This document shows positions 40,549-61,470 of a stretch of 64,000 bases of DNA, piece after piece. The notes beneath the pieces are model-generated. The model did not search any database. It was not told the origin of the DNA and saw only the letters and a list, made by a program, of their open reading frames with translations. The DNA is from Squalus acanthias (lineage: Eukaryota). Each line of letters begins with the position of its first letter. Within the stretch, counting starts at the first letter, position 1. The position numbers and the translations under genes were made by a program. The stretch covers positions 48,424,001 to 48,488,000 of the forward strand of contig CM059432.1 of the NCBI GenBank assembly GCA_030390025.1. The letters run 5' to 3'.

Positions 40549-43500
40549 CTAGGAGGAAAGGAAATAAATGGTTCCAATGCTTCTGGTATATGCCTCAGTT
40601 GAGGAAGCGCTCAGTCAAGGTGGCGAGAGGGGTTTCCCAGGAGGTCACACTGGACATGGGTGTCAGGCTCCAAACTTCCACAACAATGGGTATGCCTGTT
40701 AAAAGTTCCCCCAGACCTCAGACAACAAACTTCTGCCACCTGCAAATGATGATTGCTGAAAACTCCTTTTTAATGGTGGAGCTGCAGCTGTTAGTAAGCA
40801 ATCCACTCGTGAGGCCGCCAGGATTCACTGGCGTGTTCCAGAGGAGACGTGCAGGACGTGGGAAAAGTGGTAAAATCAGAAAGGCCTCTCAAAATGGGAT
40901 TATAGAGGCACTTAACTGGTTGTTAAGGGCCTTAAGGGCCTATCCCGCCTCTTGGAGGCGGGATGGAAATGGGGTCAGAAAACACACATTTAGGAAATTT
41001 GCTCGGAGGCGGGATCGGGCCCACCCGCCATTTTTTGCGATTTTACCACCTCACACGCTTCCAATCCCGCCTCCTTGGGCCTGGCAAAATCGAGCCCTAT
41101 CAGTCAGGAGAAGGGGGCAGGCAGGTAGTCAGGAAAGCCCCAGAGTGCATCTCACTCGACAACCGTTGGAAAATGGGGAAAGTGACGGTTCCTCTGGGGA
41201 GTGCAGCCAGAGCCAAGTTCACGGCACTGTGGGTGGCTCAGCTGCACAAGGGGGGAGGAGTAAGAGTGGAAGGGCAATAGTGGTAGGAGACTCAATAGTG
41301 AGGCGTGCAGACAGGCGTTTCTGCGGCCGCAGACGTGACTCCAGGATGGCATGTTGCCTCCCTGGTGCCAGGGTCAAGGATGTCACTGAACGGCTGCAGG
41401 ACATTCTGAAGGGGGAGGGCGAACAGTCAGAGGTCATGGTTCACATTGGTACCAACGACATAGGTAGAAAGAGGGATGAGGTCCTGCAACAAGAATTTAG
41501 GGAGCTAGGTAGCAGATTAAAAAGCAGGACCTCAAAGGTTGTAATCTCTGGATTACTCCCGGTGCCACATGCTACTGAGTATAGGAATAGGAGGATAGAG
41601 CAGATGAATGCGTGGCTAAAGAGTTGGTGCAGGAGGGAGGGCTTTAGTTTCCTGGATCACTGGGTCTGTTTCTGGGGAAGGTGGGACCTGTACAAGTCGG
41701 ACGGGTTGCACCTGAACCGGAACGGGACCAACATCCTTGCGGGGAGGTTTGCTAGTGCTGTTGGTGGGGGGGGGGTTTAAACTAACTTGGCAGGGGGATG
41801 GGATACGGAGTGGAGCTATAGTAGGAGGTGATGCACAGCCAAATATATAGAGGAAAAAACAAGTCAGTCTGGAAGGCAGAACAAATATGTAACAGCACAA
41901 GGGAGTATGGCAAGGCTGGATGGCATTTATTTTAATGCAAGGAGTCTTGCAAGATGAATTGAAGGTGTTGATAAACACATGGGAGTATGATATTGTTGCT
42001 ATCACAGAGACATGGTTGAGGGAGGGGCAGGACTGGCAGCTCAATATTCCGGGGTATAGAATCTTCAGGCGAGACAGAGGGGGGTGTAAGAGGGGGTGTC
42101 GCAATATTAATCAAGGAGTCAATTACTGCAGTAAGGAGGGATGATATCTTAGCAGGTTCCTCTAATGAGGCCATATGGGTAGAACTTAAAAACAAAAAGG
42201 GGGCAGGCACTTTGCTGGGAGTGTACTATAGGCCCCCAAACAGTCAGGGGGAGATAGAGGAACAGATATGTAGGCAAATCTCAGAGAAGTGTGGTAATAA
42301 TAGTAGGGGATTTCAACTTCCCCAATATTAACTGGGATAGTCAGAGTGTGAAAGGCTTAGAGGGTGCGGAATTCTTAAAGTGCATCCAGGAGAGCTTTTT
42401 GAGCCAGCCTGTAGAAAGTCCTACAAGAGAGGGGGCGGTACTGGACCTAATTCTCAGGAATGTAGCCAGGCAAGTGGTAGAAGTGTCAGTAGGAGAACAT
42501 TTTGGTGACAGTGACCATAATTCGGTGAGATTTAAGGTAGTCATGGAAAAGGACAAAGATGGACCGGAAATAAAGGTTCTAAATTGGGGGAAGGCTGATT
42601 TTAATATGATAAGGCAGGATCTGGCCAAAGTAGACTGGCATCAGCTACTTGTAGGAAAATCCACATCAGAGCAGTGGGAGTCATTCAGAAAGGAAAGAGA
42701 GTACAGCGCCAACATGTTCCTGTAAAGGTCACGGGTGGGACCAACAAGTCCAGGGAACCCTGGATGTCAAGGGATATACAAGAATGGATTAGGAAAAAAA
42801 GGGAGGCTTTTGGCAGATACAAAGGACTAAAAACAGTGGAAGCCCTAGAGGAGTATAGAAAGTGCAGTGGGGGGGCACTTAAAAAAGAAATTAGGAGAGT
42901 GAAGAGGGGGCATGAAAAAACACTGGCAGGCAAAATAAAGGAAAATCCCATGGTGTTTTATAAGTATATTAAGGGCAAGAGGATAACCAGGGAAAGAGTA
43001 GGGCCCATTAGGGACCAAAGTGGCAATCTGTGTGTAGAGCCGGAAGATGTAGGTGAGGTTTTAAATGAATATTTTGCATCTCTGTTCACTATGGAGAAGG
43101 ACGATGTAGGCATAGAAATCAGGCAGGGGGATTGTGATATACTTGATAAAATTAGCATTGAGAGGGAGGAGGTACTAGCGATTTTAGTGGGCTTAAAAGT
43201 GGATAAATCCCCAGGCCCAGACGAGATGTATCCCAGGCTGCTGTGTGAGGCAAGGGAGGAGATTGCAGGGGCTCTGACACAAATTTTCAGAACCTCTCTG
43301 GCCACAGGGGAGGTGCCAGAGTACTGGAGGACAGCTAACGTAGTACCATTATTCAAGAAGGGTAGTAGGGATAAACCAGGGAATTACAGCCCAGTGAGCC
43401 TAACATCAGTGGTAGGGAAATTATTGGAAAAAATTCTGAGGGACAGAATTAGTCTCCACTTGGAGAGGCAAGGATTAATCAAGGATATTCAGCATGGCTT

Positions 43501-46263: not shown

Positions 46264-48033
46264 ACATAAGAACATAAGAAATAGGAGCCCTTCGAGCCTA
46301 CTCCGCCATTCAATAAGATAATGGCTGATCTTCTACTACATCTCCACTTTCCTGCACTATCCCCATATCCCTCGATTCCCTTAATATTCAAAAATCTATC
46401 GATCTCTATCTTGAATATACTCAACGGCTGAGCCTCCACAGCCCTCTAGGGTAGAGAATTCCAAAGATTCACAACCCTCTGAGTGAAGAAATTTTTCCTC
46501 ATCTCAGTCCTAAATGGCCGACCCCTTATTCTGAGACTGTGACCCCTGGTTCTAGACTCCCCAGCCAGGGGAAACATCCTCCCTGCATCTACCCTGTCAA
46601 GCCCTGTAAGAATTTTGTATGTTTCAATGAGATCACCTCTCATTCTTCTAAACTCCAGAGAATATAGCCCCAGTCTACTCAATCTCTCCTCATAGGACAA
46701 TCCCCCCCATCCCAGGAACCAGTATGGTGAACCTTCGTTGCAATCCCTCTATAGCAGGTATATCCTTCCTCAGGTAAGGAGACCAAAACTGTACACAATA
46801 CTCCAGGTGTCGTCTTACCAGGGCCCTATATAATTGCAGCAAGACGTCGTTACTCTTTTACTCAAATCCTCTTGTAATAAAGGCCAAAATACCATTTGTT
46901 TTCCTAATTGCTTGCTGTACCTGAATGTTAACTTTCAGTGATTCGTGTACAAGGTCACCCAGGTCCCTCTGAACACCAACATTTCCCAATCTCTCACCAT
47001 TTAAAAAATACTCTGCTTTTCTATATTACCTACCAAAGTGGATAACTTCACATTTCTCCACATTATATTCCATTTGCCATGTTCTTGCCTGTCTATATCC
47101 TCTTGAAGCCTTTCTATATCCTCTTGAAGCCTCCTTGTATCCTCCTCACAACTTACATTCCCACCCAGCTTTGTATTATCAGCAAACTTGGATATATTAC
47201 ATTTGGTCTCCTCATCCAAATCATTGATGTAGATTGTGAATAGCTGAAGCCCAAGCACTGATCCTTGCGGTACCCCACTAGTTACAGCCTGCCAACCCGA
47301 AAATGACCCATTTATTCCTACTCTCTGTTTTCTGTCCGTTAACCAATCCTCAATCCATGCTAGTATATTAGCCCCAATCTCATTAGCCCTAATTTTGTTT
47401 AATAACCTCTTGTTTGGCACCTTATTGGATGCCTTCTGAAAATCCAAATACACCACATCCACTGGTTCCCCCTTACCTATTCTGCTCGTTACAACCTCAA
47501 AAAATTCAAACAGATTCGTCAAACACGATTTCCCTTTCATAAATCCGTGTTGACTCTGCCTAATCCTATTACAGGAAACTCTTTATTAACCGGCACCGAC
47601 GGGACCGGCGTGGTGCCGGTTGATCGAAAGTTCCAGATAACGGAGAGTTACATCTACCGAGGCTATTTTTAACAAAGAAAAATAAATAAATCAAGAAATG
47701 TGCAGTATACTTCCGACAGCGCCAGGAGGCCGAGTAGTGGCACTTTTGAAAACTACCCCTACTGACTAAATCGGCGTTCGCGGACTCGGACTCGGGATCG
47801 GCAACATTGCCGGTTATTTGAGAGGAGTTTTCGGAATACTCGGCGATCGCGGAGACTCGACTGCGACTCGGCAACATTGCCGGTTATTTGAGAGGAGTTT
47901 TCGGAGGATGATTTTTGCTGGTTAAGCGAGAATTCCGGATATTTGGGTGCCGGATAAACAAGAGTTTCCTGTATTTTCTAGGTGCCCTGTTACCACGTCC
48001 TTAATAATAGATTCTAGCATTTTCCCTGCTACT
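46264..48033 (-). mobile_element. CR1 LINE, 5' truncated, same subfamily as 10079 and 61804
   Basis: RT motifs and tail; interrupted by a MITE at 47572-47971. Confidence 0.95.
47572..47971. mobile_element. Tc1/mariner superfamily (pogo/Tigger-like) MITE, 400 bp
   Basis: TIRs CAGGAAACTC...CCGGCACC / GGTGCCGG...GAGTTTCCTG; TA TSD; internal tandem repeat. Confidence 0.88.
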
Positions 48034-58397: not shown

Positions 58398-58580
58398 TTA
58401 CATAGTATTTACAACACAGAAACAGGCTATTGGGCCCAACAGATACATGCCGGTGTCTATGCTCCACACGAGCCTCCTTCCACCCTACTTCATCTAACCC
58501 CATTAACATATCCTTCTATTCCTTTCCTCATGTGTTTATCCAGCTTCCCCTTAAATGCATCTATGCTAGTTGTCTCAACT
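58398..58580 (-). mobile_element. CR1 3' end
   Basis: SIDAFKGKLDKHMR motif plus 3' UTR. Confidence 0.8.
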
Positions 58581-58964
58581 AGAAAGTTCAAAGTTTTTGA
58601 TGTTTCATTGCTGCAAGATGTCCAAGCCCTCCACTTTGAGTGTGTGTTTGGGGCTGTAACGGCAGTCGTGCAGGTCGTCTTGCAATGCAGACCTGCCGAC
58701 AAGTAGGTTGTGCACCATCATTGGCCCTTCCTTTTAAGCGAGGGAAGCAGCCTCTGATGCCATTAGCAATGCGCTCCAAATTGTTCAGCGCTCTGCCGCT
58801 ACCGCCCCACTTTCGGACTTTAGCGCCCTAAGAGAAGTGAAGTGGTTAGCGCTTGATTTAGTGCTCCACTTCCCTCTTGGAGCGCTAAAGCTGAATTTCC
58901 CGGCAGGAAAGAATCATTAGCGCTTGGCGGTACTTTTTCTACTTTTCAAAAGTTAGCACCCAAT

Positions 58965-61470
58965 AGCCCTAGATGTTTTCTATTACAGGAAACTTTCGTT
59001 TATCCGGCACCCAAATATCCGGAATTCTCGCTTAACCGGCAAAAATCATCCTCCGAAAACTCCTCTCAAATAACCGGCAATGTTGCCGAGTCGCAGTCGA
59101 GTCTCCGCGAACGCCGAGTGCTCCGAAAACTCCTCTCAAATAACCGGCAATGTTGCCGATCCTGAGTCCGAGTCCGAGAACGCCGATTTAGTCAGTAGGG
59201 GTACTTTTCAAAAGTGCCACTACTCGGCCTCCTGGCGCTGTCGGAAGTCCGAAACACTGCAGTAGCAGGAGTTGATTCTCCCGCGCTGCCTGGAGTCTCT
59301 TTGTTAAAAATAGCCTCGGTAGATATAACTCTCCGTTATCCGGTACTTTCGATAAACCGGCACCACGCCGGTCCCGTCGATGCCGGATAAACGAAAGTTT
59401 CCTGTACATCATTGAATAAGGATTCCATTATCTTTCCTACCACCGACATGAAGCTAATTGGGCTATAGTTCCCTGGACTTGTTCTATTTCCCTTTTTAAA
59501 TATAGGAATCACATTATCTGTTTGACAGTCCTCTTCTATCTTAAATGTCTTTATATCTTTTTTGATCTCTTCTTCTAATGTCATATCCATCATGTTAGTC
59601 TCCCTGGTAAATACCGAGGCAAAGTAACTATTTAATATTTCTGCCATTTTGCTATTATTACCTGTGAGTTTATTGTGTGTATCCCTTAGTGGTCCTATCC
59701 CTATTTTTCTTTTGTTGTTTATGAGTCTGTAGAATAATTTTAAATTTCTTTTTATATTCCTTGATAATTTAATTTTGTAGTTTCTCTTTGCCTTCCCAAT
59801 TGTTTTTTTTTACTTCTTTCCTAATATTTTCCTATTCCCTTTTGTCATCCTCTCCTTTGTATACTTTTTTCTTTAGTTTCAAGTTTGCCCTTATTTCTTT
59901 ATTCATCCGTGGTGTGTTATTACTGGCTACTTTGTTCTTGCTTTTTGGTGGGAGATATTTCTCTTGGAATCTACTGACCACCATTTTAAATATTTCCCAC
60001 TGCTGTTCTATGTCTATGTTTGTCAGTAAATGTTTCCAGTTTACTTTCCCAGTTCCATTCTCAGACCCTTAAAATCAGCTTTTTTCCAATTTATTACTTT
60101 GGTCTTTATCTGAATCTTTATCTTAAACCTTATTATGCCGTGATCATTATTGCCTAGATGTTCTTCGCTTGTCTTTTCTGGTTTATTTCCCATGACTAGA
60201 TCCAGCAGTGCTCCATCTCTAGTTAGGCTTTTTACATACTGGATAAGAAAGGAGTCCTGTACAACTGTAAAAACTCCATTCCTTGTATCCCTTTCGCTTC
60301 TTCTTGCCAATTCATTTGGGGGTAGTTAAAATCTCCCATGAAGATTATTCTATATCCTTTACTCATTACACATATTTCTTCCTCCACCTCCTTTCCACGA
60401 TTAGGTGGTCTATAGTATACCCCTATTAGCGTGACCGATCCCTTCCTATCTTTTATTTCAATCCATATGGATTCTGTTTCTAACCTTCTGTTCGTTATGT
60501 CCCTTTTTTCTACTGCCATTATGTTGTCTCTAGCACAGGTATCCCACCCCCTTTTACCATCCCTATCCTTTCTGATTATGTGATAACCTGCAATATTTAG
60601 TTGCCAGTCCTGTTCTTTATGTAGCCATGTTTCAGTTACTCCTCCTACATCTGGTTCCTCGCCACGGATTATTGCCTCCAGTTCCCCCGTTTTATTCTGG
60701 ATGCTGTGTACATTGCTGTACAGGCAGTTTGTCTTTAATAACTGTTACTTTTACTTTATTTTTAACAGTTCTTTTATGCTTCTGTTTTATAACTGTATTT
60801 GTTCCCTGACCGTTTATGTTACCCTTGTCCCTTATCTTGGTCTGACCATTACTCTCATCTCCTATTTCTTTTATCTTCGGACTTAGGTTATTTTCAGCAG
60901 ATCCCTCTCTCCGGCTTACTAGTTTAAAGTCCTATCGACAGCCCTATTTGTCCTTTCCACTCCAGTCAGGTGGAGCTTGTCCCAGTGGTACAGCTCCTTC
61001 CTGTCCCAGTATTGGTGCCAGTGTCCCATGAAATGGAACCCCATCTTCCCACACCAGTCTTTCAGCCACGCTGTTTTTTAAATTTGGTACCGAACTTCTG
61101 ATATTCCCTTAGCAGGACCTCCTCTCTTTTCTTCCCTATGTCAACTGGATCTTCCCCCTCCCTTTCCAAATTCCTCTCCAGTTGCTCAGAGATATCCTTT
61201 ACCTTTGCACCAGGTAGGCAACACACCCTTCTGGAGTCTCAGTTGCTACTGCAGAGGATGCTATCTATCCTTCAAATTATCAAATTCCCAATGACTGCAA
61301 CCTTTCTATTTTGCTCTTTGGCCTGCCTCCTGCTCCACGGTGCTATGGTTAGCATTCTGGCTGTCCATCCCGCAGCCTACATCCTTATCCTCACAGGTAG
61401 CAAGTATATTGTACCTGTTGGACAGGATCAGTGTCTGCAGGACCTCATTCTCTATTTTCCCTTACCCTGC
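58965..61470 (-). mobile_element. Old CR1 5' half (ORF1 esterase, spacer, EN, start of RT)
   Basis: Degenerate CCLPGAK-like and GLHL-like ORF1 motifs; CLYSN, GVYYRPP, MGDFNYP and LDLVM EN motifs. Confidence 0.88.
58986..59404. mobile_element. Second copy of the pogo/Tigger-like MITE, opposite orientation to 47572
   Basis: TIRs CAGGAAACTTTCGTTTATCCGGCA; TA TSD. Confidence 0.9.

Follow-up and report, generated by a model that had tools for sequence, protein, structure and literature searches.

How ribosomes reach the second open reading frame (ORF2) of LINEs is an open question, for which reinitiation, an IRES and 2A have been named in a review (PMC3894237). The locus analysed here raises it for the CR1-group elements, the dominant retrotransposons in most vertebrates (PMC13343379): is their ORF2 started anew near the ORF1 stop codon, or is it entered by a programmed -1 frameshift? 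The window, by which we mean the whole 64-kb stretch of DNA under analysis, is animal DNA with many CR1 pieces, and the named homologues of ORF1 come chiefly from sharks and rays. Two of these pieces, copy 1 and copy 2, are compared here at the junction of ORF1 and ORF2. A sequence-only reading of copy 2 had proposed -1 recoding as the route into ORF2.

The feature lies where ORF1 meets ORF2 in copy 2, a decayed CR1 LINE (Table 1) that is itself dead. The element is assigned to CR1 by its ORF1 and endonuclease (EN) matches and by its likeness to a named consensus: ORF1 encodes an SGNH esterase, and in ORF2 an AP endonuclease is followed by a reverse transcriptase (RT). In tblastx comparison the ORF1 of copy 2 is 38-54% identical to that of copy 1, which matches PF13472 (SGNH family) in Pfam; the last 46 residues of copy 2 ORF1, searched alone against Pfam, gave no esterase match. 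A profile of ORF1 homologues matched 4C1B, the structure of the ZfL2-1 ORF1 esterase. In the ORF1 tree, where it is represented by just 28% of columns, copy 2 groups with proteins P0035 and P0047. The nearest published relative is SquAca_CR1-22, whose junction start and EN start are, by eye, as in copy 2. The VERTN motif noted earlier in ORF1 is itself a product of decay, with about six ORF1 codons missing there in the alignment (loose contig ends at 60966). An N-terminal piece of the RT resembles copy 1, and the RT is otherwise mostly gone: at 58400-59500 copy 2 skips from the RT start to the final ORF2 codons and other DNA is inserted. An element of about 420 nt at 58984-59406 interrupts ORF2 of copy 2; its terminal inverted repeats are 26 nt long, and it also contains internal repeats. 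It sits apparently at a duplicated TA, has a second copy at 47570-47973 (88% alike), and looks like a Tc1/mariner-type MITE.

Table 1. Features of the two CR1 junctions, in positions of the window.
Feature	Positions	Strand	Basis
CR1 ORF1, 3' part, decayed; SGNH esterase domain; ends ...RAVDRTLN-stop	60919..61349	-	tblastx to copy 1
Slippery heptamer T_TTA_AAC in X_XXY_YYZ phase; codes the final Leu-Asn of ORF1	60922..60928	-	sequence
ORF1 stop TAG immediately 3' of the heptamer, then TAA	60916..60921	-	sequence
G box, from 10 nt after the heptamer; candidate 3' stimulator	60903..60911	-	
A-rich spacer, open and ATG-free in the -1 frame only	60731..60918	-	
5-nt loss relative to paralogues, breaking the spacer/EN frame in copy 2	60730..60731	-	contig comparison
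ORF2 AP-type endonuclease start (NCLYSN...)	60244..60729	-	PF03372 above cut-off
Copy 1 junction: TTTAAAC, TAA, GGGGG (41793-41797), decayed spacer	41776..41802	+	

On the minus strand the junction of copy 2 runs ...ACT TTA AAC TAG TAA, with the TAG at 60921-60919, and the sequence confirms that T_TTA_AAC at 60928-60922 stands in slippery phase. From the heptamer onwards the -1 frame runs for 78 codons before it meets a stop at 60694, and it contains no ATG; 67 of these codons precede the EN motif, as the sequence-only reading had stated. The other two frames are closed: within the 194-nt spacer the 0 frame has 10 stop codons, the +1 frame 9. Among 20,000 dinucleotide shuffles, the -1 frame stayed open in 0.23% (p=0.0023) and any frame in 0.59%. 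Shifting by -2 or +1 was also considered and rejected; that frame has a stop within the heptamer. The EN motif NCLYSNVHSIQNK begins at 60729 in the same 0 frame as the ORF1 end, one indel away from the -1 frame, and the small indel postulated earlier proved to be the 5-nt loss at 60730. Within the EN of copy 2 the first in-frame Met is residue 71. As had been claimed, the spacer cannot be aligned with that of copy 1 beyond chance (1375 of 2000 shuffles score equally well). It has no Pfam match, a search with the spacer peptide retrieved no homologue, and it is predicted to form a low-complexity linker between esterase and endonuclease. The stretch TTTAAACTA, singled out as kept between the copies, is indeed shared, but not alone, the downstream G run being common to both as well.

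Paralogues of copy 2 are visible only as contig pile-ups. Contigs came from four runs, two for organism A and a single one for each of B and C; aligned to 60520-61120 at 80% likeness, they numbered 1187-2832 per run. The paralogues diverge from copy 2 at 60730, where 29 contigs (X1) and 36 contigs (X6) have loose ends. Two contigs across this point, X6 record 22 and X7 record 24, exceed copy 2 by exactly 5 letters and show 5 gap letters, and X1 record 8 covers 60728-60927 gap-free; the other listed contigs are decayed, with 14-30 gap letters, and among the pieces listed none spans the whole stretch. By eye, the loose ends read ...K-(N/D)-K-L-N-C, which together with the 5-nt loss indicates that in those paralogues the -1 frame enters EN. 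No change at the heptamer sites occurs among the 40 listed of 88 variant rows, and none of the 20 listed spacer changes creates a stop or an ATG in the -1 frame. Thus, the interruptions of the paralogue frame that would have spoken against recoding are absent from the listed changes, and the frame joins EN. Since 40 of the 88 rows are listed and ten spacer codons are one change away from ATG, an in-frame ATG may occur among the further variants. In all four runs the depth of aligned contigs increases by as much as about a hundredfold at 60982-61044, within ORF1; either many CR1 families match there or a separate high-copy repeat shares the stretch.

Metagenome contigs scanned with the ORF1 alignment yielded 38 loci, 15 of which reach the ORF1 end (the 23 that stop short were dropped). 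The heptamer TTTAAAC is found in 13 of them and GTTAAAC in one; the remaining locus, L026, belongs to a different fish element and has neither. A stop codon follows the heptamer immediately in 12 of the 14 related loci. Three decayed loci have an indel farther upstream that puts ORF1 out of frame, but the residues right before the heptamer are in phase. Where both heptamer and EN start are covered (11 loci), EN lies in the -1 frame in 10, behind spacers of 31-93 codons (p=1.3e-4 if the loci are independent; one of them carries a stop where EN begins). In L002, L010 and L012 the -1 frame is open for 953-1006 codons. In the tree of ORF1 ends most of these DNA loci fall into a single bird-type clade, from which L002, L001, copy 1 and copy 2 stand apart, each on a deep branch of its own; L001 is sturgeon-type by cluster names. 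The deep-branching L002 has a near-intact ORF2 (973 codons), and at 680-686 reads G_TTA_AAC with the G run 3 nt closer; proteins P0103 and P0107, which read VKL...G, would fit such a variant. Viral contigs contained no relative. Genome contigs gave 7 weak loci, and of the two examined (L040, L045) neither extends to a junction.

After exclusion of 10 of the 56 protein matches as fused, partial or motif-less, 42 of the 46 proteins with an intact ORF1 end terminate in Leu-Asn. Two predicted ray proteins, P0027 and P0029, join esterase, FKL, spacer and EN in a single frame; a search of 50%-representatives with P0029 found no further clean esterase-EN fusion, and P0103, considered as one, is a gene-model join. 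In copy 1 a long G run 5' of the heptamer (41764-41775) has slipped and left the ORF1 end out of frame, and P0029 likewise reads GG into FKL; a G run before the heptamer may therefore be a mutation hot spot that yields apparent fusions. One CR1 ORF1 with 70% identity to copy 1 (P0006) carries the name of a Pseudomonas aeruginosa SGNH hydrolase; its contig is 4 kb long and probably reflects host contamination. In the CR1 consensus table published with a 2026 survey (PMC13343379), 18 of the 22 TTTAAAC-plus-stop matches shown lie, by eye, at the ORF1 end, a motif-selected count without a denominator. We take the species codes of these 18 to stand for crocodilians, a lizard, a frog, coelacanth, bowfin, sharks, rays and a chimaera. 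An unbiased motif search of the table returned two rows, both heptamer-bearing and too few to supply a denominator. AldAff_Crack-2, from the supplement of PMC13343379, bears the Crack label, yet has an esterase-like ORF1 end and the heptamer, without the G box. According to the same survey no ORF1 was found in vertebrate Crack elements, and AldAff_Crack-2 is possibly a chimeric consensus.

If ORF2 were instead started by termination-reinitiation, at an AUG or a near-cognate codon beside the stop of ORF1 as described for SART1 and L1 (PMC3894237; PMC2881922), start codons should be sought at the junction, and some families do have them. In 5 of 16 sequences, four of them bird-type, codon 4 or 5 counted from the heptamer start, 1-2 codons past the stop, is an in-frame ATG; this frequency exceeds the background Met rate of 9 in 463 later spacer codons. 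Codon 5 is ATG in L006, L009, L010 and L012 and GTG in L005 and L008, and L025 has UAAUG. By eye, UAAUG also occurs in 3 of the 18 consensuses (ScyCan_CR1-1a, in frame to EN, SquAca_CR1-17a and 6c), and the gappy consensus of SquAca_CR1-22 places an ATG 15 codons ahead of the Cys codon of EN. Copy 1 carries an ATG at 41907, just 5' of the EN motif. Among the 15 ORF2 calls listed for the sturgeon-type family, 4 start at an ATG 25 codons 5' of the heptamer, 4 begin inside EN, and P0251 has Met at codon 5. The description of ORF2 as ATG-less accordingly holds for copy 2, L001 and L022, which have no Met before the EN motif, but not for CR1 as a whole, several families having an in-frame ATG near the stop. 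A conserved ORF2 ATG, which would have told against recoding, is likewise not found family-wide. Seven of the 16 sequences, copy 2 included, have neither ATG nor CTG, GTG, TTG or ACG among their first 12 codons in the frame of ORF2; neither copy 2 nor the listed paralogue variants have an AUG adjoining the ORF1 stop in that frame, and the ATG that paralogues form at 60914 is out of frame. No conserved UGGGA reinitiation motif was found, UGGGA occurring upstream in just 8 of 16 sequences and at scattered places. Moreover, the AUGs differ in position, the heptamer is retained with or without them, and reinitiation, of whose signal heptamer and G box would be part, leaves the in-phase X_XXY_YYZ unexplained. 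We therefore regard reinitiation as an unlikely general route into ORF2. It may serve some CR1 families, possibly running beside frameshifting in them.

Downstream of the heptamer, conservation extends to the G box. It reads GAGAG-A-GGG in copy 2 and GGGGG-A-GGG in the majority of paralogue depth, with G in 60-95% of this depth at 60910 and 90-96% at 60908. In 12 of 13 sequences GGGGG begins exactly 10 nt past the heptamer, and as a rule two further letters and then GGG come after it. Copy 2 is the exception. The count excludes two loci of insufficient length and L002, whose G run starts 3 nt sooner. Because two of the five Gs fall at third codon positions of the -1 frame, the run reflects more than Gly coding. 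Of the 18 consensuses, which visibly lose letters, 6 have the run, by eye, at this offset, 10 have it displaced or incomplete, and 2 lack it. The sequence-only reading expected a 3' structure 5-9 nt downstream. Here it did not hold up: by a folding method that does not predict pseudoknots we found no conserved hairpin (z between -1.0 and +1.6 for 14 sequences and between -0.6 and +1.2 for 7), and an unpaired G5 run stands at 10 nt instead. The G box has no shared long-range pairing partner and no Rfam match, A-rich spacers such as those of L001 and copy 2 offer no C-rich partner, and just 3 of 14 sequences are predicted to form a two-tier quadruplex. Judged by position only, the G box is likely to be the stimulator. 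More speculatively, it would work unfolded, by binding a protein, or as a weak G-quadruplex, rather than as a hairpin or pseudoknot.

A partnerless G box conserved at synonymous positions is also what a binding site with some other job would look like. Heptamer and G box might thus form an RNA or DNA signal for RNP protein binding, splicing or transcript processing, with ORF2 started by a different route. Such a signal predicts neither the codon phase of the heptamer nor the immediate stop, nor a -1 frame that is open to EN in 10 of 11 spacers; for splicing in particular, there is no pyrimidine tract before the AG, and TAG is replaced by TAA or TGA in some lineages. We consider this explanation very unlikely.

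The heptamer might finally be kept for its amino acids. In 11 aligned ORF1 ends the terminal codons are TTA in 11 of 11 and AAC in 11 of 11. By contrast, 3-5 different codons occur at each of five further conserved Leu columns, another conserved Asn splits 7:3, and TTA accounts for 3 of the 74 remaining Leu codons; TTA, AAC and the preceding T would come together by chance with a probability of about 0.004 in each lineage. Agreement at four-fold sites is seen in 247 of 556 comparisons overall, in 54 of 174 between groups, and the three residues preceding Leu-Asn vary freely. Invariant TTA and AAC amid synonymous sites that are saturated nearby mean that Leu-Asn coding is no explanation; the nucleotides are conserved beyond coding need, as those of a frameshift site would be. 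That an esterase requirement for a Leu-Asn C-terminus, together with shared ancestry, accounts for everything is therefore scarcely credible and already largely refuted: the prevalence of Leu-Asn among ORF1 proteins and the mutual dependence of related loci through kinship speak for it, but it explains neither the invariant T before TTA/AAC, nor the freedom of the residues just upstream, nor the G box and the frame.

What is kept across deep CR1 lineages is the phased heptamer, the stop, the -1 frame open into EN and the G5 run, and not the synonymous sites or the spacer. The heptamer lies in the ORF1 phase, and the downstream ORF is open in the -1 frame (with the 5-nt break in copy 2). From these sequence features we infer, in support of the original proposal, that active elements probably use programmed -1 frameshifting to make an ORF1p-ORF2p fusion. 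The majority of ribosomes would stop at UAG and release ORF1p. In a minority, tRNA-Leu and tRNA-Asn would slip back by one base on U_UUA_AAC, the next codon would be CUA, giving a predicted join ...T-L-N-L-V..., and the spacer of 30-90 codons would be translated as a flexible linker. The outcome would be a minor ORF1p-linker-EN-RT fusion alongside major ORF1p. CR1 is not known to encode a protease, so that the fusion would remain whole. The original proposal is amended in two respects: the downstream element is a fixed G box, not a folded stimulator, and ATG-bearing families exist. The fixed position of GGGGG 10 nt after the heptamer, without a conserved hairpin, is new here. Only tentatively do we extend the model to all canonical vertebrate CR1, from sharks to birds, as elements that would make their RT by a -1-frameshift fusion with a G5 stimulator at 10 nt. 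If this is true, the G box, whether protein-bound or as a quadruplex, would represent a new type of natural frameshift stimulator; according to a 2016 review (PMC5009743), natural use of G-quadruplexes in frameshifting was not then known. A conserved shift site would also imply that many annotated CR1 ORF2 starts are wrong, and a short reporter carrying it could test how LINEs express ORF2.

We found no paper on CR1 frameshifting, although the CR1 descriptions of the 1990s and the Repbase reports, which lie outside the search, may mention it. The main text of the 2026 survey PMC13343379 contains nothing on overlap, translation or start codons, and the word 'frameshift' is absent from its supplement; 'CR1' does not occur in the first 300,000 of the 449,034 characters of PMC5009743. 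CR1 frameshifting is equally absent from the available text of PMC3708506, PMC3905857, PMC5006619, PMC11835228, PMC4255032, PMC2881922, PMC2817409 and PMC11303007.

Among known elements, canonical vertebrate CR1 (PMC13343379) resembles copy 2 in its esterase ORF1 and APE-RT ORF2, and unlike canonical vertebrate CR1 LINEs the fish locus of another type, L026, is without the heptamer. SART1, with UAAUG termination-reinitiation, and L1, with unconventional ORF2 translation (PMC3894237; PMC3708506; PMC2881922), share with CR1 a bicistronic LINE RNA in which ORF2 is coupled to ORF1, and UAAUG is present in some CR1 families. In contrast to SART1 and L1, many CR1 families, including that of copy 2, have no start codon at the junction, and all of these bear the heptamer. 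A parallel in outcome is offered by Dictyostelium TRE5-A and TRE3-A, which according to a review figure legend need a -1 frameshift for ORF2 (PMC5911963). Compared by description and not by shift signal, they differ from CR1 in clade, host and ORF1 and agree with it in being APE-type non-LTR elements with an EN-RT ORF2, which in CR1 would likewise be reached through a -1 frameshift.

The protein-stimulated frameshifts of arterivirus nsp2 and cardioviruses depend on 3' elements 12-15 nt off and on trans-acting factors (PMC5009743). The linear 3' element at a longer than usual distance is a likeness to CR1 that we take as a lead only; the CR1 box is G-rich, stands at 10 nt and has no known binding factor. 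Other viral -1 sites have a pseudoknot or hairpin 6-9 nt downstream, whereas in CR1 none was found and the G5 at 10 nt is unpaired. In three sequence features, however, the CR1 junction matches them. Viral -1 sites, retroviral gag-pol included, have the same phase and likewise lie at the end of an abundant first ORF (PMC5009743); heptamer and polymerase ORF in the -1 frame are also the same. U_UUA_AAC is among the shiftiest heptamers and is the site of infectious bronchitis coronavirus, and the single G_UUA_AAC variant seen in CR1 is a known viral form, G_UU(A) being the equine arteritis virus variant (PMC5009743). Through the predicted esterase-EN-RT fusion the polymerase would be tied to assemblies of ORF1p in the manner of Gag-Pol.
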